A stretch of 41,363 nucleotides of DNA from contig JAGLYZ010000002.1 in NCBI GenBank assembly GCA_023131895.1, positions 1 through 41,363 on the forward strand, given 5' to 3'. The notes below the pieces were generated by a model. That model was given only the letters and a program-made list of their open reading frames with translations, did not search any database and was not told the DNA's origin. Shown piece by piece: positions 6,548-39,650 of this stretch (positions are counted from its first letter, which is position 1; the number at the start of each line of letters is the position of its first letter). The translations under genes and the position numbers were made by a program. The DNA is from Candidatus Parcubacteria bacterium (GTDB lineage Bacteria; Patescibacteriota; Minisyncoccia; Minisyncoccales; JAGMDC01).

Positions 6548-7314
6548 AAACTTTAGTTATCCTTCACGGCTGGCAGAGTTCAAAAGAGAAATGGCAAACC
6601 GTAAAACAAGAACTCCAAAAACGCACCGAGAACGGTTCTCGGTGTGTTGAAATTAAGGTAATTATTCCTGATTTGCCGGGTTTTAAGAAAGAGACACAAT
6701 TAGACAGAGTTTGGGATTTAGATGATTATATTAAATGGTTAGAGAATTTTATTTCTGAAAATTCGAAAACCTCTTGCCCTGAGCTTGCCGAAGGGTTTTA
6801 TTTATTAGGTCACTCATTTGGCGGCAGAATGGCAATAAAATTCGCTGTCAAGCATCCAGAAAAACTAAAGGGCCTGATTTTAGTTTCTTCTGCCGGCATA
6901 AAACCAAAACAAAACATTTTCTACTTGACGTTTCTTGCGGTCGCAAAATTTGTCAAATCTATATTTTTAAAAATTCCTATATTGAAAAATTCTTTTCCCT
7001 TTTTTAGAAATATTTTTTATAAATATATTTTAAGAAAAACTGATTATTTAAAAGCAGAAAAATTGCCATATCTCCAAGAAACTTTTAAGAATATCATTAA
7101 AGAAGATTTAAGAGAGTATTTTTCTAAAATTAAAATCCCGACTTTAATTATCTGGGGCGATAAAGACAGAATGACCCTCTTAAAAGACGCTTATTTGATG
7201 AAAGAAAAAATAAAAGGTTCAGAATTAGAAATTATAAAAAATGTTGCCCACACTCCGCATTTAGAAAAACCAGAAATTTTAGCTCAAAAAATCATGAATT
7301 TCATTAAAAAATAA
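6544..7314 (+). CDS. Alpha/beta-fold hydrolase
   Basis: Nucleophile elbow GHSFGG (GxSxG), IWGDKDR, and a C-terminal AHTPHLE (catalytic His region). ATGA overlap with serS. Confidence 0.8.
   Translation: MKTLVILHGWQSSKEKWQTVKQELQKRTENGSRCVEIKVIIPDLPGFKKETQLDRVWDLDDYIKWLENFISENSKTSCPELAEGFYLLGHSFGGRMAIKFAVKHPEKLKGLILVSSAGIKPKQNIFYLTFLAVAKFVKSIFLKIPILKNSFPFFRNIFYKYILRKTDYLKAEKLPYLQETFKNIIKEDLREYFSKIKIPTLIIWGDKDRMTLLKDAYLMKEKIKGSELEIIKNVAHTPHLEKPEILAQKIMNFIKK
6624..6644. repeat. In-CDS perfect palindrome CACCGAGAAC-G-GTTCTCGGTG
   Basis: 10+1+10 nt perfect hairpin palindrome, about 62% GC, in-frame in the hydrolase gene (encodes TENGSRC). The 22-mer 6624-6645 is identical to 13917-13938. Confidence 0.9.
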
Positions 7315-8873: not shown

Positions 8874-9955
8874 ATAGTATGTTAAAAGTCAAAGAAATTA
8901 TTCAAAAAGAAATTTGGGAGGATTTTCTTTTAGGATGTGATGAAAAGACATTTCTGGATTCTTGGAATTGGGGAGAGTTTCAAAAAAAAATGGGCCAAAA
9001 AATTTGGCGCTTTGGAATTTACTTGTCCGCCGAAGCTTTAGCGAAGGAGGATGAAGTATCTAATCTCCTTACAGTAGCTTTGGTGATTAAAATTCAGGCA
9101 AAAAGAGGATCATTTTTGCTTGTGCCGCACGGACCCGTAATTAAGATTAATAAAGGACGGGCTTCTGTAATTACAGAAGCCCGTCCTTTGAAAGCTTTAT
9201 TAGACAAATTAAAAGAGATTGCCAAACAAGAAAAATGCAGTTTTATTAGGATAAGTCCGGTGTTTCAGAAAAATCAAGAAAATATTAAAGTTTTTAAAGA
9301 TTTAGGTTTTAGACAAGCGCCAATACATATGCATCCTGAAGCGAGCTGGAAATTAGATATTTCAGAGTCAGAACAAGAACTTTTAATGAATATGCGGAAA
9401 ACAACCCGTTATTTAATTAAACAGGCCCAAAAAAATAAAGATCTTGAAATAATTCAAAGCAGCAACATAAAAGATATTGAAATTTTTAACAAACTTTATC
9501 AAAAAGTGGTTAAATCCCAGCATTTTATCCCTTTTTCTTTAGATTATTTAAAGCAGGAGTTTTTGTCATTTCAGCAGGATAATCAAATATCTTTGTTTTT
9601 TGTAAAATATAATAAAGAAATAATTGCTTCAGCATTTGTGCTTTTTTGGTCAAAGATTGGTTTTTATCATCACGCGGCTTTATCTCCGAAATATCACAAA
9701 ATCCCGGCTGCATATCTTTTACAATGGGAAGCGATAAAAGAAGCAAAAAAGAGAGGATGTGTTTTATATGATTTTTGGGGCTATGTTAATCCAAAAGACC
9801 AGCCCAGGCATCCGTGGGCAGGGCCAACATTATTTAAAATGGGATTTGGAGGAAAAGCGTATGAATATGTCAAAACCCAGGATTTGGTTTTATCGCCGAA
9901 ATATTGGCTCACTTATATTATTGAAAAAATAAGAAAAACAAAACGCGGACTTTGA
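8870..9955 (+). CDS. FemAB-family peptidoglycan interpeptide-bridge aminoacyltransferase
   Basis: Typical FemX/FemAB N-terminus (FLDSWNWGEFQKKMGQKIW), MRKTTRYLIKQA, and a C-terminal PTLFKMGFGG. ATGA overlap with murF. Confidence 0.8.
   Translation: MNSMLKVKEIIQKEIWEDFLLGCDEKTFLDSWNWGEFQKKMGQKIWRFGIYLSAEALAKEDEVSNLLTVALVIKIQAKRGSFLLVPHGPVIKINKGRASVITEARPLKALLDKLKEIAKQEKCSFIRISPVFQKNQENIKVFKDLGFRQAPIHMHPEASWKLDISESEQELLMNMRKTTRYLIKQAQKNKDLEIIQSSNIKDIEIFNKLYQKVVKSQHFIPFSLDYLKQEFLSFQQDNQISLFFVKYNKEIIASAFVLFWSKIGFYHHAALSPKYHKIPAAYLLQWEAIKEAKKRGCVLYDFWGYVNPKDQPRHPWAGPTLFKMGFGGKAYEYVKTQDLVLSPKYWLTYIIEKIRKTKRGL
9152..9189. repeat. In-CDS 38-bp perfect palindrome
   Basis: AAAGGACGGGCTTCTGTAAT|TACAGAAGCCCGTCCTTT is exactly self-complementary, with a GC-rich outer stem. 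It is in-frame in the FemAB-like gene (encodes KGRASVITEARPL). Confidence 0.9.
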
Positions 9956-12710: not shown

Positions 12711-14259
12711 TGATTTTATAAACCCAAACTGAATCCTCGTTTGCTAACTCTCCTTTAGGAAAAGCAGTTTGAAGCTCTTGAATTGTTTTTTCATTATTAT
12801 CCATCAAAACTATAACTGTCTGCCTTTTATCCGGTTTTATCGCGTTTAAATTATCTTGAAAGACATAGCCTGTCCTTATCTCTTTATTCTTTGTTTTTTC
12901 AATAAAAACAATAGTCTCAACAGGCAATGGAAGATGCGGGCCTGATTCATTTACAATAACATATTTTTGCGTTTCTTCTGAAACAGAATTTAAATACATT
13001 CCAATTTCTACGCATTCTTTTGAAAAGGATCTTTCTACTTCTGGATTTTTCCCCCAGAAAATAAAATATCTGTAATATTGTGTAAAGACAAAAGAAATTA
13101 CTAATAAAACAGAAGCTAGGATTATTAAATAATAAACCCAATCTTTCTTTTTATCTTTTAAAAGATTCTTAGATTTTCTATAAACAAACTCTCCTCCTAT
13201 ACCAACAAAGATAAAAGCGAAAGGAATAGCTCCAATGCATCTTAGAGAATGTGGGATGCCTTCATAGGTTAAGATGCCTGGAACCAGCATTATAAAAAAA
13301 CTAAAGACTAGAAATGAGAAAGGAAAAAATGATTTTTTTAGGATTTTTTTAAAGCTTAAAATCAAGCCGATTAAAAATAATATTCCCACTGGCCAGAATA
13401 AAACAGGGGAGCCGGAAATATTATGGCGCCAATTATAATCGCCCGCAATATTAAACATTGCTGAATGGATAATAAAGCTCTTTCCTAATTCCTTAATCGG
13501 CTCTGGTTGGGAAAAAATTGAAATTCCAGTAGTCCTGCTTACAAAATTTTCAGGGTTTTCAAGGAAATAAAATCCAATAGGCGCGGCAATAATAAAAGTA
13601 AAAAGTAAAAATGAAGAAGTAAAAACCAGGAATTCTTTTTGCAGGTTTTGCTTTCTGTAAATCAACCACCACAAAATAAGAATTACAGGGATAATTAGAA
13701 CAGCTAATCTAAAAGCAATATAAGTATGGAAGCCCAAGCCAAAGATTATGCCGGCAATTATAAAATAAGAGATCTTCTTTGTTCTAAAACCTTTAAATAA
13801 AAAATAAAAAGAAAAGGTTAGGACAAAAGGAACTAAAATAGCCCTAAAGCCGATATGAGAGAAATTAATATGCCATAAGCTTGTCGCTAAAAAGAAAGAA
13901 GCAAAAAGAGCAATACACCGAGAACGGTTCTCGGTGTATTGAGAAAACAATTCCTTTGTTAAAAGATAAAGGCCGAGAACAGTGAGAATGCCGAAAAAAG
14001 CAGAAACAACCTTAAATGACCAAATACTTATGCCAAAAACAGAAAAAGACAGAGCGATTAGATTAATGAATAATCCTTCTCTGCCATTGTTTTCCGGGTA
14101 AAATATTTTTCCAGGTTCAGTAATTGCTTGATTGGCGTTGATAGCTTCATCAGGATAAATTCCAGGCGGAATTGTCTCTATCTGCCATAACCGGAAAAAA
14201 ACAGCTAGGGCAATAATCAATAAAAGCAAAATTAAAAGTTTTGAACTTTTTGGCAACAT
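12700..14259 (-). CDS. GT39/ArnT-like glycosyltransferase (second copy)
   Basis: 519 aa and polytopic. The N-terminal loop PPGIYPDEAINANQA is characteristic of ArnT/GT39-family proteins. Confidence 0.8.
   Translation of the reverse strand: MLPKSSKLLILLLLIIALAVFFRLWQIETIPPGIYPDEAINANQAITEPGKIFYPENNGREGLFINLIALSFSVFGISIWSFKVVSAFFGILTVLGLYLLTKELFSQYTENRSRCIALFASFFLATSLWHINFSHIGFRAILVPFVLTFSFYFLFKGFRTKKISYFIIAGIIFGLGFHTYIAFRLAVLIIPVILILWWLIYRKQNLQKEFLVFTSSFLLFTFIIAAPIGFYFLENPENFVSRTTGISIFSQPEPIKELGKSFIIHSAMFNIAGDYNWRHNISGSPVLFWPVGILFLIGLILSFKKILKKSFFPFSFLVFSFFIMLVPGILTYEGIPHSLRCIGAIPFAFIFVGIGGEFVYRKSKNLLKDKKKDWVYYLIILASVLLVISFVFTQYYRYFIFWGKNPEVERSFSKECVEIGMYLNSVSEETQKYVIVNESGPHLPLPVETIVFIEKTKNKEIRTGYVFQDNLNAIKPDKRQTVIVLMDNNEKTIQELQTAFPKGELANEDSVWVYKINDE
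13911..13941. repeat. In-CDS 31-nt perfect palindrome CAATACACCGAGAAC-G-GTTCTCGGTGTATTG
   Basis: 15+1+15 perfect hairpin palindrome with the same core as 6624-6644. It is in-frame in the minus-strand GT39 gene (encodes YTENRSRCI). Confidence 0.9.
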
Positions 14260-15204: not shown

Positions 15205-15279
15205 GGGCGTGTGGCTCAGTGGTAGAGCGCATTCCTGATAAGAATGAGGTCGAAGGTCCGATTCCTTCCACGCCCACCA
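15205..15279 (+). tRNA. tRNA-Ile (anticodon GAT), CCA encoded
   Basis: Manual cloverleaf: acceptor GGGCGTG/CACGCCC, D arm GCTC..GAGC, anticodon stem CATTC/GAATG with loop CTGATAA, T arm GAAGG-TCCGATT-CCTTC, then discriminator A and CCA. Confidence 0.9.
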
Positions 15280-15289
15280 AAAATTTTAA

Positions 15290-15363
15290 GGGCCCGTAGT
15301 TCAGTTGGTTAGAATATCTCATTTGCAATGAGGAGATCAGCGGTTCGAATCCGCTCGGGTCCA
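15290..15363 (+). tRNA. tRNA-Ala (anticodon TGC), CCA not encoded
   Basis: Acceptor GGGCCCG/CGGGTCC contains the G3:U70 alanine identity pair. The anticodon loop is TTTGCAA and the T arm AGCGG-TTCGAAT-CCGCT is canonical. Confidence 0.85.
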
Positions 15364-29670: not shown

Positions 29671-30345
29671 ATGAAAAAGAAGACACCTCATCATTTAGGC
29701 ATTATTTTAGATGGCAATAGAAGATGGGCAAAAGAAAGGAACTTGCCTGTTTTTGAGGGTCATAAAAAGGGCAGGGAAAAGGTGAAAAAAATTATAAAGG
29801 CTTGTAAAAACAAAGGAATAAAAATTCTAACATTATTTGTTTTTTCTACTGAAAATTGGAAAAGACCAAAAAAAGAAGTTGATTATTTAATGGAACTGAT
29901 TAAAGGCATTATAGGTCTTAAAGAGCTTGACAAACAAGGAATTAAGGTTGTAGTAATTGGTCAGAAAGAGAAATTATCCAATGGCATTCAAAAGGTGATA
30001 GAGAATGCTGAAAAAATTACTAAGAACAACAAGGCAATGATTTTAAATATAGCCTTAAGCTACGGAGGCAGGGCGGAAATCGTTGAAGCAATAAAAAATA
30101 TAATTAAAAAGAAAATTTCTTTAGAAAAAATTGATGAAAATATAATTTCCAAAAATCTTTGGACATCCGACCTTGATTTAATTATCAGGACTGGCAAAGA
30201 GAAACGGATTTCTAATTTTTTAATCTGGCAGGCAGCCTATTCTGAAATTTTCTTTTTTGATAAATATTGGCCTGATTTTACTGAAAAGGATTTAGATAAA
30301 GCTATTAATGAATATTCTCGCCACCTTCGCCGCTTCGGGGAGTAA
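29671..30345 (+). CDS. uppS: Undecaprenyl-diphosphate synthase (cis-prenyltransferase)
   Basis: HLGIILDGNRRWAKERNL, FVFSTENWKRP, IRTGKEKRISNFLIWQAAYSE, and a C-terminal RRFG. Confidence 0.92.
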   Translation: MKKKTPHHLGIILDGNRRWAKERNLPVFEGHKKGREKVKKIIKACKNKGIKILTLFVFSTENWKRPKKEVDYLMELIKGIIGLKELDKQGIKVVVIGQKEKLSNGIQKVIENAEKITKNNKAMILNIALSYGGRAEIVEAIKNIIKKKISLEKIDENIISKNLWTSDLDLIIRTGKEKRISNFLIWQAAYSEIFFFDKYWPDFTEKDLDKAINEYSRHLRRFGE

Positions 30346-30408
30346 ATGTTTCATCACAAATCAGTACGATCGTTTTAATTTGTGACCGGGTTTAAAACGA
30401 AAAAAAGG

Positions 30409-30437
30409 GGCTCGTTTAAATCTTGATTTAAACGAGC
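30409..30437 (-). terminator. Strong hairpin terminator, best on the minus strand and possibly bidirectional
   Basis: 12-bp perfect stem GCTCGTTTAAAT / ATTTAAACGAGC with a 5-nt loop. On the minus strand it is followed by CCCTTTTTTTCG. Confidence 0.7.
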
Positions 30438-30445
30438 TTAACTCT

Positions 30446-30610
30446 TTATTTACAGCCTATTTTTTGTTCGTATTGCCACTGTTTCATCGTTCTTCCGAAA
30501 TACACACCGCGTTCTATTTCTGGATAATAGATTATGGTCATTTCTACCAAATAACCTATTTTCATAAGAAATTCTCCAAGATGCATCTTTAATTTAAAGA
30601 ACATTTTCAT
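30446..30610 (-). CDS. Orphan 54-aa protein with its own promoter, Shine-Dalgarno site and terminator
   Basis: MKMFFKLKMHLGEFLMKIGYLVEMTIIYYPEIERGVYFGRTMKQWQYEQKIGCK. AGGAGGTG lies 2 nt before the ATG at 30610. The track ORF (to 30658) would run through the Shine-Dalgarno site and promoter. Confidence 0.5.
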   Translation of the reverse strand: MKMFFKLKMHLGEFLMKIGYLVEMTIIYYPEIERGVYFGRTMKQWQYEQKIGCK

Positions 30611-30629
30611 TACACCTCCTATATTCAAA

Positions 30630-30658
30630 ATGATAACAGTAATTAATAAATTTGTCAA
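30630..30658 (-). promoter_or_regulatory. Sigma70 promoter TTGACA-17-TATCAT for the 54-aa ORF
   Basis: On the minus strand: TTGACA (30658-30653), a 17-nt spacer, and TATCAT (30635-30630). Confidence 0.55.
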
Positions 30659-30676
30659 ATTTTATATTGATTTACG

Positions 30677-30709
30677 AAAAAAACAGGGGATTTAACCTCT
30701 GTTTTTTTT
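30677..30709 (-). terminator. Hairpin flanked by A and T runs downstream of the recombinase gene
   Basis: AAAAAAACAGGGGATTTAACCTCTGTTTTTTTT. The 6-bp stem has a G.T pair on the plus strand, which becomes an A.C mismatch on the minus strand. T runs are present in both orientations. Confidence 0.45.
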
Positions 30710-30745
30710 ATTCTTTTAGAGGATGGTACTTCTTATTTTTATTAA

Positions 30746-31690
30746 TTAATCTTTGATACCATGATATTTTTGGTGTATTTCTTTTAGGTGAGGCTTGGTA
30801 ACGTGGGTATATATTTGAGTAGTAACTATATTACGATGGCCTAGAAACTCTTGTACAACTCTTAAATCAACACCTTTCATAAGTAGATCGGTTGCAAAAC
30901 TATGCCTAAGTGTGTGGCAGGAAGTGGTTATAGGGAGTCCGGCTAAAATAGCGTATTTTTTAACTGTACGTTCCATGCTTCTTACATTTAAACGAGTTCC
31001 AGGGTTTTTCCCTCTATAGTTTATAAATAGAGCTTTTTCTTTGTCATTACGTATCTCTAAATACTTTCTAAGCCAGTTAATAGTTCTTTCTGATAAATAA
31101 ACAGTTCGAGGATGACCTCCTTTGCCTATAATACTAATCTCTAATTCCTTAGTATCAGGTTTTATTTTAATTTGGTCTCGATTAAGATTTACTAATTCTG
31201 CAACTCTTAATCCTGTAGAAAAAAAGGTTTCTAAAATGGCTTTATCTCTCAGATCTCTTATATTTGAGGTCTTAGACGCGTCTAAAAGCTTTTTGACTTG
31301 TTCTAAAGTAAGAAAATTTACAGTTCTTTCTTCTTTTTCTTTAGGTAGTTTTATCTTTTCTGGTGGAAGAGATAAAATATCTTTTTCAGTGAAATAACTT
31401 AAAAGTGACCTTAAAGCAATTAAATAATAATTTTGTGTTGAACGTTTTAAAGGTTTTTTATCCTTCTGAAGATATTGGCGAGAAAGAAATAATCTATATT
31501 TCCAGATATGATCTGTTGTTAGTTCATGTGGTTTTATATTTTCTATTTTATTTATCTTTAGAAAATCAAAAAACTTTTTCAAAAATCTTGAATAGTTTTC
31601 TTGACTTTTATCAGAAAGACCTTTTTCTAACTCTAACCAATCTAAATAGTCAGAAAAGAGGACTTTAATAGGTTGGTCAATTTTGTTCAT
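30746..31690 (-). CDS. Tyrosine site-specific recombinase, XerC/XerD family
   Basis: 314 aa. N-terminal SAM-like core-binding domain; catalytic residues R (GLRVAEL), HxxR (HTLRHSFAT), and H..Y (LGHRNIVTTQIYTHV). Confidence 0.85.
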   Translation of the reverse strand: MNKIDQPIKVLFSDYLDWLELEKGLSDKSQENYSRFLKKFFDFLKINKIENIKPHELTTDHIWKYRLFLSRQYLQKDKKPLKRSTQNYYLIALRSLLSYFTEKDILSLPPEKIKLPKEKEERTVNFLTLEQVKKLLDASKTSNIRDLRDKAILETFFSTGLRVAELVNLNRDQIKIKPDTKELEISIIGKGGHPRTVYLSERTINWLRKYLEIRNDKEKALFINYRGKNPGTRLNVRSMERTVKKYAILAGLPITTSCHTLRHSFATDLLMKGVDLRVVQEFLGHRNIVTTQIYTHVTKPHLKEIHQKYHGIKD

Positions 31691-32507: not shown

Positions 32508-32549
32508 ACAGCTTTTTATATACAGTTCTCTAAGAGCTGTCTTTTTTTT
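32508..32549 (+). terminator. Rho-independent terminator after the 37-aa ORF
   Basis: 9-bp stem ACAGCTTTT / AAGAGCTGT (one G.T pair), a 15-nt loop, then CTTTTTTTT. Confidence 0.5.
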
Positions 32550-32565
32550 ATTTTAAACCAATAAA

Positions 32566-34113
32566 TTAATTTTTGGAGAACAGTTCTCTGGCTTCTTTAA
32601 TTCTTTTAATAGACTTCTCTTTTCCTAGAATGTCAGCGACTTCAAAAGGCCCGGCAGACGCCTTTTTTCCTGTCAGAGCCACTCTTAATGGCCATAAAAG
32701 CTTTCCTCTATCCCCTGCCTTCCCTGCTTCAAACATTAAAATCTTTTCTAAGTTCTCTTTATTAAAATCTTTAGATTCTATTTTAGACAATATTTTCTCT
32801 AATTTGTCAAGAGTATCATTAACTTCTTTATCTGTCATATCCTTCCATTTTAACAAATCTTTATTATATTCTAATCTCTTCTTAAAAAAGAAATCCGTAA
32901 ATTCAGCAATCTCTGATAAATATCTTAATCTTTCATGGTATGCTTTTACGACTTTTATTAAATAATCGCAGCCAATGATTTCGCCTGTTTCTTTTATTTT
33001 AAACTCTGGTTTTTTTTCTTTGAATAATTCAAATTTTTGAGAACTGTTCTCCTTAGGAGAACAGTTCTCTATAGTTGATACCCATTGTTCTATTAAACCT
33101 GCTTTTATTAAATAAGGAATGCATAATTCAGCTAGCCTTTTATTTGATTTCTGACGGATGTAAAATCCGTTTAAATAGTCAAGCCGTTTGATGTTAAAAA
33201 TCGCGCCTCCTTTTTGAATTTTTTCTAATGAGAACTCTTTAATTAGTGAAGGCAAGACATAGATTTCTCTTTCTGTTCCAGGATTCCAGCCTAAAAATGC
33301 CATAAAATTGATTAAAGTTTCCTTAAGATAACCTTTTTCTTGATATTCTGTGATAGAGGAAGCGCCGTGCCTCTTGCTTAGTTTGCTTCTATCAGGACCC
33401 AATATCAGTGGTAAATGCGCGTATTTTGGATGAGAAAAACCTAATGCTTGTTGAATAAGAATTTGTTTTGGCGTATTAGAAATATGATCTTCTCCTCTAA
33501 TAACATTGGAAATTTCCATTTCAGAATCATCAATAGCTGCGGCAAAATTATAAAAAGGTTTTTTCAATCCTTTGCTAATAATAAAATCACCAATTAGTTT
33601 GGATATAAATTCAATTTTCCCTCTGATTAAATCATCAAAAACTATTTTTTTTGCTGTTTCCGGAACTTTAAACCTGATAACAAAAGGTTTTTTTTCTTTT
33701 AACTTCTTTTCAACTTCTTTTTTAGAAAGCCCCCTGCACTTGCCTGAATAATTAAGAGCTTGACCTACAGAAATTTGATATTCTTTTTGAGCTTCCAATT
33801 CTTCTTCTGTGCAGAAACAATAGTATGCTTTGTCTTCATCTAAAAGTTTTCTGATATATTTTTCATAAATATCTAATCTTTCGCTTTGTTTATAAAATTC
33901 ATCACATTTTAATCCAAGCCATTCCAGGCTTTCCATAATATTTTTTTCATATTCTGGTTTTGATCTTTCTAAATCAGTGTCTTCAATTCTTAAAATAAAC
34001 TGCCCCTGGTTTTGTTTGGCAAAAATATAATTAAAAAGAGCTGTCCTGGCAGTTCCAATATGCAAGAGTCCTGTAGGCGATGGAGCAATTCTTGTTCTAA
34101 TTTGATTAGTCAT
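32566..34113 (-). CDS. gltX: Glutamyl-tRNA synthetase
   Basis: RTRIAPSPTGLLHIGTARTALFNY (HIGH) and KLSKRHG (KMSKS). The preferred start is ATG 34113 (MTNQIRTR), 1 nt after the murG stop. The track ORF extends to 34149. Confidence 0.93.
   Translation of the reverse strand: MTNQIRTRIAPSPTGLLHIGTARTALFNYIFAKQNQGQFILRIEDTDLERSKPEYEKNIMESLEWLGLKCDEFYKQSERLDIYEKYIRKLLDEDKAYYCFCTEEELEAQKEYQISVGQALNYSGKCRGLSKKEVEKKLKEKKPFVIRFKVPETAKKIVFDDLIRGKIEFISKLIGDFIISKGLKKPFYNFAAAIDDSEMEISNVIRGEDHISNTPKQILIQQALGFSHPKYAHLPLILGPDRSKLSKRHGASSITEYQEKGYLKETLINFMAFLGWNPGTEREIYVLPSLIKEFSLEKIQKGGAIFNIKRLDYLNGFYIRQKSNKRLAELCIPYLIKAGLIEQWVSTIENCSPKENSSQKFELFKEKKPEFKIKETGEIIGCDYLIKVVKAYHERLRYLSEIAEFTDFFFKKRLEYNKDLLKWKDMTDKEVNDTLDKLEKILSKIESKDFNKENLEKILMFEAGKAGDRGKLLWPLRVALTGKKASAGPFEVADILGKEKSIKRIKEARELFSKN
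32576..32588. repeat. GAGAAC-A-GTTCTC palindrome unit at the gltX 3' end
   Basis: The 15-mer GGAGAACAGTTCTCT (32575-32589) is identical to 33056-33070. Confidence 0.85.
33039..33069. repeat. In-CDS 31-nt perfect palindrome made of two GAGAAC-N-GTTCTC units
   Basis: GAGAACTGTTCTCCT-T-AGGAGAACAGTTCTC (15+1+15). It is in-frame in gltX and encodes ENCSPKENSS. Confidence 0.9.
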
Positions 34114-38189: not shown

Positions 38190-39650
38190 TTATTTATAAT
38201 ATCCTTTTAATAAAATTTTGTCAAATTTTTTAGGCAAACTGTTTTGCTTATTCCATGAGTTTAATATTTTTTTTGAGTCATTTTCTAATTTCAATTTTGA
38301 GTATTTCGGCAAAATTTTCTTCTCAAAATAATCCAAAACCACTGGCAATTTCTTATTAACCCTCCTTTGCTTAAAGCTACGGAGGGCAAGGTAAAAAGCA
38401 ATCAAACATTCTTTTTTTGTTCCTATGCATTCAAATGGTTTGAACTTGGTCTCCCCTACCAGTTCTTTCATAAGTGGTATTAATTTCTGGTCTTGAAAAA
38501 GGTTTTTATTAAAAATTTCAACAACTTTTTCCTCTTTAATAAAAGGATACAAAATTAAGAAAACAAACAAGCATTTTGAGCACTTACCGCACCATTTGCC
38601 TGTTGGTTTTTTGGTCCAGGAATTTGTTTTTCTTGCTTCGTTACAGCTTAAAAATACAGGAAAATATTCATGAAATTCAGAGAATAATTTTGCTATTTGG
38701 ATTTCATACAAAGGACGCAAAAAACTAAAATAATTTATATCTTTTACTAAGTATTTTTTTAAGTAATTTCTAAATTTATTTTCAAATTCAAATGTTTTAG
38801 ACCATTGATGATTGATCGTTTTGCCAAGATACTTTATATTGCCTTCATCAGCGCTTCTCTCACAGGACATTGCTATATTTTTATATCCAAACAAAACAGC
38901 CGCGAAAACTGCTAAGTTAGAAATTAATGCAGTAATTGGAGTATGACCGTTTAAAAAACCTTTTTGATATAACTTTGATAAAACAAGGTCTACTTTTCGC
39001 CTTACAATTACAGGGTTTTTCGCCCCAGCGATTTTCAAAATTTTAAAATGCCCCTTCTTCGGATTAACAATAAAACAATTTATTTGATTTTTTATGTCCC
39101 TGCCAGATTTTTCAAATTTTTTAAGTAATTCTAATGTAATAATGGAATCCTTTCCTTCACCCATTGGAATTAAAATCTTATCTTCAAGTAAGTTCACGAT
39201 CGTGAGTTTACTTTGATTCTTGTTTATTTCGCTTAGACAACATATTTTTATAAAATCAGGCTTTGTAAAATCAATTTGGTTTTCATAAAAAAATTGTCCC
39301 ATTCCATTAAGGATAAAATCTTTCCACCATTTAATTTGGTCCTTATTTAAATAGCCGGCTTTAATTTCAATTATCGGTGAGCAAGTCGCTTTCCAATAAC
39401 TGGGAATTTCCATTAAACCCAAATGAAAAACAAGATTATCTAATACCTTGTCCCCTATTTGATTTAATCGTTTTTTATCAATATTTCTTATGATTATTTC
39501 CGGTTTAAAGAAAATCGAGCGAGGTCTGTCCTCGTAGTGGGAGATTTTAAAATCAAAAAAAATCTTTAAATCATTTTTAAAGATTTTGTAGGAATAACTT
39601 TCGTAAACAAATCTCGGATATTTTTTCCTTAATCTATCAATCTTATTCAT
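38190..39650 (-). CDS. PP-loop-like (adenine nucleotide alpha-hydrolase-like) protein in the dcw cluster; candidate MurL-type stem-peptide epimerase or modifier
   Basis: 486 aa. It contains an SGGxDS-like motif (IPMGEGKDSIITL) and a C-terminal Cys cluster (CNEARK...WCGKCSKC) of the kind seen in PP-loop ATPases such as QueC-like enzymes. It sits between mraY and murD. TATAAT lies 7 nt upstream of the ATG. The functional call is inference. Confidence 0.6.
   Translation of the reverse strand: MNKIDRLRKKYPRFVYESYSYKIFKNDLKIFFDFKISHYEDRPRSIFFKPEIIIRNIDKKRLNQIGDKVLDNLVFHLGLMEIPSYWKATCSPIIEIKAGYLNKDQIKWWKDFILNGMGQFFYENQIDFTKPDFIKICCLSEINKNQSKLTIVNLLEDKILIPMGEGKDSIITLELLKKFEKSGRDIKNQINCFIVNPKKGHFKILKIAGAKNPVIVRRKVDLVLSKLYQKGFLNGHTPITALISNLAVFAAVLFGYKNIAMSCERSADEGNIKYLGKTINHQWSKTFEFENKFRNYLKKYLVKDINYFSFLRPLYEIQIAKLFSEFHEYFPVFLSCNEARKTNSWTKKPTGKWCGKCSKCLFVFLILYPFIKEEKVVEIFNKNLFQDQKLIPLMKELVGETKFKPFECIGTKKECLIAFYLALRSFKQRRVNKKLPVVLDYFEKKILPKYSKLKLENDSKKILNSWNKQNSLPKKFDKILLKGYYK
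38196..38224 (-). promoter_or_regulatory. Sigma70 promoter TTGACA-17-TATTAT for the micro-gene pair
   Basis: On the minus strand: TTGACA (38224-38219), a 17-nt spacer, and TATTAT (38201-38196). It lies within the last codons of the 486-aa gene. Confidence 0.55.

Follow-up and report, generated by a model that had tools for sequence, protein, structure and literature searches.

Why should an essential gene in a very small bacterial genome carry a long, perfect palindrome that is translated together with the rest of its reading frame? The question is raised by gltX, the gene for glutamate--tRNA ligase (GluRS, 515 amino acids), which lies at 32566-34113 on the minus strand of the DNA analysed here, a stretch of 41,363 nt from a Candidatus Parcubacteria bacterium (Patescibacteriota, Minisyncoccales; assembly GCA_023131895.1, contig JAGLYZ010000002.1, positions 1 to 41,363; hereafter called the window). 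The original prediction, made by reading the letters of this DNA, had singled out a palindrome built from two GAGAAC-N-GTTCTC units within gltX, and had proposed that a DNA-binding protein might recognise its half-site. We suggest instead that the gltX palindrome is probably an inverted doublet belonging to a repeat family in Patescibacteria that resembles the repetitive extragenic palindromic sequences (REPs), similar to the REP doublets that form hairpins (REPINs), and that it is tolerated in frame. The broader part of this reading, that there is a dispersed family of palindromic repeats whose constraint lies in the DNA itself, we hold to be very likely.

The palindrome in gltX and its turnover in sister species

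The 31 nt at 33039-33069 (minus strand) read GAGAACTGTTCTCCT-T-AGGAGAACAGTTCTC, that is, two 15-nt arms which are 100% complementary on either side of one central base, and they encode the peptide ENCSPKENSS, residues 349-358 of GluRS, just as had been predicted. Each arm holds a 13-nt GAGAAC-N-GTTCTC palindrome: given as plus-strand sequence, these are GAGAAC-T-GTTCTC at 33039-33051, which on the coding strand is the second unit (GAGAACAGTTCTC), and GAGAAC-A-GTTCTC at 33057-33069, both assigned to the minus strand. A third unit, GGAGAACAGTTCTCT, which had been placed in the final codons of the gene, is indeed found there (32575-32589, minus strand); it is read in a different frame, as R-E-L-F-S (residues 509-513), within the C-terminal sequence ..R-E-L-F-S-K-N*. 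When folded in silico, as the prediction had recommended, the doublet gives one stable 14-bp hairpin (-14.8 kcal/mol as DNA, z-score -8; z-score -5.6 in its RNA context). The single 3' unit alone is a weak hairpin (-2.3 kcal/mol, z-score -0.98).

A hairpin that is very stable as RNA might act in RNA: the palindromes could be mRNA stabilisers, RNase III sites, pause or attenuation signals, or intrinsic terminators that are read through. Relatives of the unit in intergenic DNA, described below, stand just after stop codons and several of them are followed by T-runs, while transcripts often include classical REPs, which can make mRNA more stable (PMC3733652). The gltX copies themselves speak against such a role, in that no T-run, and hence no U-tract in the transcript of the kind that marks an intrinsic terminator, follows either the internal doublet or the 3' unit, and the latter is not a stable hairpin. 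A scan of the window with Rfam returned rRNA and tRNA only, and no family matched the palindromes.

The prediction had also counted a half-site, ACAGTTCTC, at 32522-32530 in the adjacent terminator loop. The half-site is present and does lie in a terminator-like hairpin (32522-32540), but this hairpin is on the plus strand and the half-site is of a kind that occurs at chance frequency, with 14 isolated GAGAAC/GTTCTC hexamers in the window against 13.9 expected. Because isolated hexamers are at chance level, the half-site carries no weight; its hairpin also gave no alignment with the arms of the relatives' hairpins, and we judge it to be outside the family. On the same count we rejected the idea that isolated half-sites form a signal resembling an uptake sequence.

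In the protein, the palindrome falls between the two domains recognised by Pfam, tRNA-synt_1c (residues 4-312) and Anticodon_2 (residues 382-508). The query aligns to solved GluRS structures over residues 4-321 and 385-512, and the 63 residues between them (322-384) compare with about 26 in 8i9i, which bears out the earlier view of the block as an insertion. Its lineage specificity, likewise proposed, holds in an alignment of 60 GluRS homologues: ENCSPKENSS is restricted to the three closest sequences (84-100% amino acid identity), namely the query and its two nearest relatives (84-85%), and more distant homologues have DCPDGVNCPE, NPGNPEE or YPPAYGG at this position, the whole stretch that joins the catalytic domain to the anticodon-binding helices being a hypervariable linker. 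At the DNA level, the linker palindrome is absent from the relatives L126, L127 and L128 (68-79% amino acid identity); homologues with 72-79% identity have DCPDGVNCPE or a similar peptide here. In an AlphaFold model based on 40 homologues (mean predicted local distance difference test score, pLDDT, 85.7), residues 347-362 have a pLDDT below 50, which makes the peptide encoded by the palindrome a predicted disordered loop. We suggest that the doublet is tolerated in frame because it is sited in this disordered, hypervariable loop. We saw no evidence that the element serves GluRS, and the finding appears to be without bearing on the function of the enzyme.

The fate of the units can be followed in two sister genomes with ~80% nucleotide identity to the window over gltX, namely GCA_049642725.1 (L001, hereafter species B) and a JGI contig (L003). 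The window itself recurs unchanged within a metagenome-assembled genome of Minisyncoccales, GCA_030630045.1. Both keep the internal doublet save for two central positions (CCT to CCC and AAG to AAA), and in all three pairwise comparisons the doublet lies inside the best-conserved stretch of gltX. The 3' unit is single in the window, has become an inverted doublet in species B and is absent from L003. In the doublet of species B, AGAGAACAGTTCTCC-TAA-GGAGAACTGTTCTCC, the TAA in the middle is the stop codon of gltX. Each of the two doublets is made of units whose central bases complement each other (T and A in the internal one), and these are therefore inverted and not tandem duplications; both fold into composite stems of 14-15 bp, longer hairpins of the kind that REPINs form.

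Inverted doublets are also what fold-back synthesis predicts, and this brings in the main rival to our reading. Replication errors by fold-back or template switching could, with no dedicated enzyme, make and maintain the palindromes: the nascent strand would copy its neighbour as a reverse complement, later switches would hold the two arms the same (quasi-palindrome correction), products that fall in frame within tolerant loops would survive, and the shared GAGAAC core would be a matter of common descent and short-patch conversion. The 3' end of gltX fits this rival, as its left arm matches the ancestral coding sequence (A[A/G]AGAA[T/C]TG, K/R-E-L) and only the right arm is extra compared to L003.

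Two further observations concern gltX as a whole. We considered whether the conserved ~60 nt downstream of the doublet could be an embedded element, and put this aside since distant homologues conserve the stretch as protein and its codons are A/T-rich with few alternatives. Separately, identity along the gene is mosaic, with the window and species B more than 90% identical in the first ~450 nt, and species B and L003 more than 90% identical around 530-740, which suggests recombination among sister populations.

Copies of the unit and the constraint on their arms

The unit can be written as (C/G)GAGAAC-N-GTTCTC(G/C), with a core of 13-15 nt; extended palindromes reach 21-45 nt, with perfect arms of 9-22 nt. 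It is enriched in the window: in this DNA of 31% G+C, GAGAACNGTTCTC occurs 5 times against 0.06 expected, a count reached in 0 of 100 shuffles and amounting to about one unit per 8 kb, and 6 perfect inverted repeats have arms of 10 nt or more, compared to 0.37 in Markov shuffles. Neither of the two outcomes that the original prediction had named as refuting it, a GluRS segment conserved across phyla or a motif that is not enriched, was thus observed. The focus on gltX did not survive this wider view. Two of the GAGAACNGTTCTC sites, 6628 and 13920, which the original prediction had not listed, each lie within another open reading frame (ORF), those of an alpha/beta-hydrolase and a GT39 glycosyltransferase, and in the sister genome the unit is found in murL and between genes.

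The hydrolase copy (6620-6648, plus strand) is AACGCACCGAGAAC-G-GTTCTCGGTGTGTT, with one G.T mismatch, and encodes KRTENGSRCV (residues 26-35). The copy in the GT39/PMT_2 ORF (13911-13941, minus strand) is a perfect 31-nt palindrome, CAATACACCGAGAAC-N-GTTCTCGGTGTATTG, encoding QYTENRSRCI (residues 107-117). A variant copy in murL (39520-39539, minus strand), CACTACGAGGAC-A-GACCTCG, is partly decayed and encodes HYEDRPRSI; at the same position and with the same length, L001 has the perfect ACTACGAGAAC-A-GTTCTCGTAGT (HYENSSRSI). The ORFs with in-frame copies (gltX, hydrolase and GT39) are intact, and on folding, the extended copies and the doublet form stable hairpins both as DNA and as RNA.

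To follow these copies we compared the window with syntenic orthologous loci of species B (L227) and of a third species, species C (L228). In the GT39 loop the window reads CAATAC-ACC-GAGAAC..GTTCTC-GGT-GTATTG, L227 reads CAACAC-TAC-..-GTA-GTGTTG and L228 reads CAATAC-ATT-..-AAT-GTATTG; the arms are perfect in all three, with each change in one arm mirrored in the other despite the resulting T to I and R to Q changes in the protein. The orthologous hydrolase copies in L227 and L228 also carry compensated arm changes, and in L227 (CACTACGAGGAC-A-GTCCTCGTAGTG) even the core is affected, by a compensated A-to-G / T-to-C change. We then aligned 19 copies without gaps, taken from GT39, hydrolase and murL, 11 of them being metagenomic GT39 loops. 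In this alignment 81% of cells pair, 7 of the 14 pairs have changed on both sides (28 cells), and the covariation score is 0.277, compared to 0.135 for shuffled data (0 of 500 reach the observed score) and at most 0.108 when the partners are slid.

Arms also change together outside this family. A translated palindrome, AGGAGAAGAAGAT-tt-ATCTTCTTCTCCT (KGEEDKSSSP), differs between L155:150-177 and L156:2478-2505 by a compensated A-to-C / T-to-G pair, and this comparison shows the same arm co-evolution in an unrelated element. In the window, a second case of a translated palindrome that does not belong to the GAGAAC family is found in a FemAB-family ORF, where a perfect 38-nt palindrome (9152-9189, plus strand; AAAGGACGGGCTTCTGTAATTACAGAAGCCCGTCCTTT) is translated as KGRASVITEARPL. 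The same FemAB loop holds a palindrome of the type that accompanies putative transposase genes (see below), ATACACAGGTCAGACCTGTGT, in species C (L228), and an A-rich low-complexity sequence in species B (L227); from these alleles the loop is apparently a hot spot with element turnover.

The flanks of the core carry a further signal. In species B, CACTAC..GTAGTG flanks are common to the GT39, hydrolase and murL copies, and in the window genome CACC..GGTG flanks are common to GT39 and hydrolase. Such lineage-specific flanks, shared by the copies within one genome, indicate concerted evolution, which the template-switch rival leaves unexplained. The best-supported reading of these comparisons is that members of the GAGAAC family are gained, doubled, overwritten and lost on the timescale that separates sister species.

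At which level, then, does the constraint act? A case for the peptide could be built on the frame, since 7 of the 9 independent coding sites are read as E-N-x-S(-R), a hydrophilic peptide, and N-x-S is a sequon of the glycosylation type. The codons do not support this. Those of the palindrome are minority codons in the genome (GAG 24%, AAC 23%, TAC 19% and CGG 5%), and the set GAG-AAC-..-TCT, given E-N-x-S, has a probability of ~0.02 per site; even so, it is the set found in 4 of the 6 EN.S peptides of the window. Moreover, the palindrome stays perfect while the amino acids change, the 3' unit of gltX is read in another frame and many copies are intergenic. Mere coincidence is excluded by the excess of units and of inverted repeats given above, and we regard peptide selection or chance as hardly credible.

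Selection on RNA should leave a preference for wobble pairs. The sense-strand mismatches comprise 9 cells of the G.U type against 14 of the A.C type, so no wobble bias, and by this measure no selection at the RNA level, was detected; the same lack of bias speaks for template switching. In the copies that match GAGAACNGTTCTC, the symmetry extends to one central base and thus reaches into what would be the RNA loop, while several GT39 homologues have three asymmetric central bases, a free loop instead. The lack of a G.U preference, the minority codons and the symmetry up to the central base together place the constraint in the DNA, and not in the peptide or the RNA. Since units are also gained and lost between sister species with gene order unchanged, we consider a role in RNA very unlikely. 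As far as the aligned sequences go, they show a hairpin constraint that overrides both amino-acid conservation and codon preference.

If the constraint lies in the DNA, it could still be that of a duplex binding site, along the lines of the protein proposed to recognise the half-site GTTCTC. The units would then be sites for a homodimeric protein (a nucleoid, segregation or terminus-organising factor, or a regulator) kept by selection, and their 6-1-6 core, symmetric through the centre, the conservation of intragenic sites against codon preference, and the presence in the window of a probable replication terminus near 30.4 kb beside an Xer-like recombinase would agree with this. That isolated half-sites are not enriched disfavours recognition of the half-site as such, but is what a dimer site predicts. 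Duplex binding gives no reason, however, why each site's own extended palindromic flanks co-vary between species. The core itself changes by compensated substitutions (GAGGAC..GTCCTC), the three central bases are asymmetric in many GT39 homologues, as in a hairpin loop, and sister species differ by gain, doubling and loss of the unit. The window yielded no candidate for the binding protein. Arm-to-arm complementarity that is kept between species, with different flanks at each site, points to a hairpin and not to an operator, and we thus give the duplex-site proposal little credence. The Patescibacteria LexA box was also considered, and does not match the GAAC-N-GTTC spacing.

The unit beyond the window

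A scan for ACCGAGAACNGTTCTCGGT through 596 Gbp of reference genomes, with one genome per species, returned 19 sites, 14 of which are in metagenome-assembled genomes (MAGs) of Patescibacteria, a strong enrichment of the extended core in this group. The other 5 are in high-GC genomes and about at chance level (by our calculation ~9 are expected for 18 fixed bases). The Patescibacteria sites belong to five Saccharibacteria species, to species B (three sites), to one Parcubacteria genome (two sites) and to one other, so that Saccharibacteria, Minisyncoccales and Parcubacteria are the groups concerned. Such a recurrence of one core at non-orthologous sites in distant Patescibacteria classes is not explained by template switching alone.

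Most of the copies at these Patescibacteria loci are intergenic, and stand immediately after stop codons or between convergent genes. The intergenic copies have perfect arms of 9-22 nt and outer parts that are specific to the site; behind several of them (L139, L143, L146) comes a T-run on the strand of the gene upstream, which fits an intrinsic terminator. Species B has at least 10 sites on three contigs, a sample that was ascertained by the motif itself, and its intergenic copies occupy terminator-like positions.

Of the metagenomic lineages sampled, about ten have CGAGAA-NNN-TTCTCG hairpins in the GT39 loop. In the others the loop holds a GAGG..CCTC variant, unrelated long palindromes, tandem repeats, or nothing. 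The tandem repeats, seen in L164, L179, L181 and L208, are short (for example TKYKILNTKY; in L181 a 38-nt direct duplication), and judging from these alleles the loop is one that accepts several kinds of repeat-driven insertion.

Long perfect palindromes within ORFs are common in Parcubacteria, examples being 9152-9189 in the window, L147 (44 nt), L191 (48 nt) and L200 (38 nt), and in a published survey the phyla of the candidate phyla radiation (CPR) have the highest densities of perfect inverted repeats (PMC13155455). Both the number of such unrelated palindromes and the survey favour a general process such as template switching.

Viruses were looked at as possible carriers. In a scan of viral contigs with a 14-mer, the matches listed were mostly single and chance-like, and a 16-base scan gave 6 high-GC matches without extended palindromy; a phage vector is thus unsupported. 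As a separate matter, five phage-like contigs from IMG/VR (L079, L082, L083, L099 and L108; 52-58% G+C) carry 3-6 hairpins each that share the same apex, GGGAGAAC-S-GTTCTCCC; their outer stems vary, and where the case is clearest the hairpin follows a small ORF at a distance of ~10-20 nt. The resemblance may be a coincidence or may reflect a shared recognition motif.

A candidate enzyme and its known relatives

A candidate for an enzyme acting on the hairpins comes from species B. The ORF at L139:1829-2560 encodes a protein of 243 amino acids that matches Pfam Y1_Tnp with 30.9 bits (cut-off 23) and has more than 2,000 homologues; where their source is named, it is nearly always a Parcubacteria MAG. 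The motifs LMPNHYHLV (HUH) and CY[VI]FTNP, with the catalytic Tyr, are conserved in 40 homologues. By sequence, the comparison with the PDB was not significant, either for the single protein or for a profile (E 0.1 to ISDra2 TnpA), and it was the comparison of folds that proved decisive. The AlphaFold model (pLDDT 84.8) has as its top PDB match 4er8_A (E 4.8e-7, target-normalised TM-score 0.69), which is the E. coli REP-associated tyrosine transposase (RAYT) with a bound REP hairpin; IS200/IS605 transposases rank next. It is for this protein of the sister genome only that we can name an HUH/Y1 enzyme. In the literature that was searched, we found no paper that links RAYT or REPIN with Patescibacteria.

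The RAYT-like genes come with palindromes of their own. All 7 genes that we inspected, in Parcubacteria and Saccharibacteria, have an odd palindrome on one or both sides: ATACACAGGTC-N-GACCTGTGTAT (L139:1782-2602), ATACACCGGTT-N-AACCGGTGTAT (L234:5954-6767), CGGGGTC-A-GACCCCG (L229:5440-6270), ACGAGGTC-A-GACCTCGT (L236:736-752), TGGGAAGGTC-N-GACCTTCCCA in the Saccharibacteria locus L132 (L132:4236-4975), and in L235 (L235:152-2188) two tandem genes, each with its own different palindrome present three times. In 5 of the 7, a perfect in-frame copy of the gene's own palindrome lies at residues ~63-72, in a loop with pLDDT below 50, and encodes a peptide x-G-x-T-x with G69 and T71 as almost invariant positions; the genes of L229 and L132 showed no such internal copy. 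The flanking palindromes have a conserved apex, GGTY-N-RACC, and variable stems, which is the same architecture as in the GAGAAC family. The template-switch rival does not account for this systematic bracketing of RAYT-like genes by palindromes with related stems.

Some stems are in fact shared between the two sets. ACGAG-GTC-A-GAC-CTCGT (L236), TACGAG-GAC-A-GTC-CTCGTA (the L227 hydrolase) and TACGAG-AAC-A-GTT-CTCGTA (L001 murL) differ only by compensated apex changes, the window murL copy is of the L236 type with one mismatch, and the stem of the window GT39 copy, ATACACC..GGTGTAT, is also that of the L234 palindrome. We regard these shared stems as a suggestive link between the GAGAAC family and the RAYT-like palindromes, not as proof of one.

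The surroundings of these genes hold two other elements that we record here. On a Parcubacteria contig, a gene pair resembling a diversity-generating retroelement (bAvd/23S_rRNA_IVP and an RVT_1 reverse transcriptase; L229:1491-3229 and L232:388-2126) has a RAYT-like gene 2-3 kb away. In Nealsonbacteria, a NifU-family gene (L234:1269-2744) is split by an intein with a LAGLIDADG domain, as judged from weak precomputed Pfam matches.

The REP/REPIN-RAYT system is among the closest known. Like REPs, which measure about 20-40 nt, the units here are short, dispersed, over-represented hairpin palindromes that form inverted doublets and evolve in concert within a genome, and in related genomes they often stand just downstream of genes or between convergent genes; the HUH enzyme of the sister genome, with 4er8 as top structural match, is bracketed by palindromes. 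Even the intragenic position has precedent, since REPs within genes, REP dimers inside ORFs (including those of tRNA synthetases) and REPs that supply a stop codon are all documented, and the short RPE-4 and RPE-6 of the Rickettsia palindromic elements (RPEs) have been counted as intragenic REPs (PMC3733652). The differences are that the palindromes here are perfect and odd with a single central base, that the apex is conserved and the lower stem variable, that the RAYT-like protein is longer (~243 amino acids), and that most of its genes carry their own palindrome in frame.

Other known palindromes offer partial parallels. RPE-1 of Rickettsia is likewise a palindromic insertion, in frame, into housekeeping genes of a reduced genome, at tolerated sites and with the genes left intact. 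Ogata and colleagues are said to have found in 2000 that the RPE peptide is surface-exposed. RPE-1 measures ~100-150 bp, compared to 13-31 bp here, its sequence is unrelated, and the compensated evolution of the arms and the rapid gain, doubling and loss set the present family apart; we know of no enzyme for RPE-1. HIP1 is a palindrome of 8-10 nt with about one copy per kb genome-wide, and differs from the present unit, which at 13-15 nt is longer, is found about once per 8 kb in the window and has extended, site-specific stems. Yeast mitochondrial GC clusters are GC-rich hairpins in an AT-rich genome. These clusters and the organelle palindromes of Volvox (PMC2670323) resemble our case as GC-rich hairpins of small AT-rich genomes that are sometimes coding and are deemed selfish. 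They differ in belonging to organelles and not to bacteria, in forming unrelated sequence families and in that no HUH transposase is known to go with them.

In bacterial quasi-palindrome correction, template switching transfers a change from one arm to its partner. Hairpins formed by template switching share with ours the one-step origin of perfect inverted repeats and the copying of changes from arm to arm (10.1101/2023.04.19.537475), but this is a mutational process and not an element family, and it does not predict a core that is shared across loci and lineages. As a complete explanation of the palindromes, we therefore consider it unlikely.

We infer that the form that matters is a single-stranded DNA hairpin or a cruciform, and that a process specific to hairpins would spread the copies, overwrite them and keep their arms symmetric. 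The likeliest agent would be a RAYT-like HUH (Y1) transposase of the sister-genome type. That such an enzyme moves the GAGAAC repeats is proposed tentatively; we put its chances somewhat short of even. Fold-back template switching possibly assists, and it would also make inverted doublets, so that transposase action and template switching may both be operating. In-frame copies would persist because they are harmless to the host protein.

Several observations weigh against a REP-like family with a RAYT-like agent. Perfect symmetry and compensated changes can be obtained from template switching alone, with no transposase. There is no RAYT-like gene within the window, and the L139 protein scores 38.9 bits against NCBIfam REP_Tyr_transpos, under the curated cut-off of 80. 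The apex that flanks the RAYT-like genes, GGTY-N-RACC, differs from GAGAAC-N-GTTCTC. Two GAGAAC hairpins do edge the RAYT-MNT-HEPN cassette in L139, but they are part of a duplicated 64-nt terminator-plus-promoter module, which rules them out as proof of a cognate relation. The unpaired GTAG or CGTC tag of REPs was not found, and flanks vary by site; CTAC..GTAG in species B consists of paired stem bases, in place of which the window has CACC..GGTG. Classical REPs lie mostly outside genes, near gene 3' ends or between convergent genes, and all five units of the window are inside ORFs. Finally, in 408 kb of DNA around GT39 genes of other Parcubacteria, the relaxed core was found nowhere but in the GT39 loop itself (1.1 expected elsewhere). 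With this we discarded the idea of a high density of the core throughout the CPR, so that the high local density of the window and of species B is an expansion specific to their lineage.

A more far-reaching version would be a distinct, domesticated hairpin system of Patescibacteria, in which RAYT-like HUH enzymes recognise the apex (GGTC-N-GACC or GAGAAC-N-GTTCTC), mostly (in the cases inspected) carry their own target in translated form, and time and again write, overwrite or double short in-frame palindromes in disordered loops of housekeeping and envelope proteins. We rate this as rather improbable. If true, the repeats would not be mere tolerated junk, and it would amount to an enzyme-driven diversification of loops, or to a signal for replication or chromosome handling, in minimal genomes.

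The family, and the phylum as its host, appear to be undescribed; a literature search on the motif returned nothing relevant. The features of the gltX finding all have precedent among REPs and RPEs. If our reading is true, the ultra-small genomes of Patescibacteria, deemed streamlined, carry REP-like palindromes that are translated within essential genes such as gltX. Unusual inserts that are confined to one lineage in CPR proteins, as well as breaks in CPR assemblies, may then often be repeat copies and not functional domains, and comparative evidence is needed before an intragenic perfect palindrome is taken for a regulatory site. The loops in GT39, hydrolase, murL and gltX offer orthologous sites at which to follow the gain, doubling, overwriting and decay of hairpin repeats between sister species, and the RAYT-like genes with the palindromes that bracket them make a concrete candidate pair of enzyme and substrate. 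What would be unusual, if confirmed, is the apex-centred recognition, the RAYT-like genes with their own palindrome in translated form and the repeated reuse of the same loops.

The remainder of the window holds no mobile-element or DNA-binding gene that we could find; its Pfam-matched ORFs are housekeeping genes save for one Xer-like recombinase, and a few ORFs are unmatched. That recombinase, of the XerC/D-like tyrosine type (30746-31690, minus strand), lies in a region (30345-31690) where genes converge and the GC skew changes sign near 30.4 kb, and together with two palindromes (30354-30385 and 30410-30437) it adjoins the switch. From this arrangement, the region near 30.4 kb is probably the replication terminus and dif region. 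Genes for tRNA-Ile(GAT) and tRNA-Ala(TGC), which are commonly found in the 16S-23S spacer, are located at 15205-15363, with a DUF3467 gene on one side and dnaK on the other; the 23S-5S end, at 1-446, is ~15 kb away.

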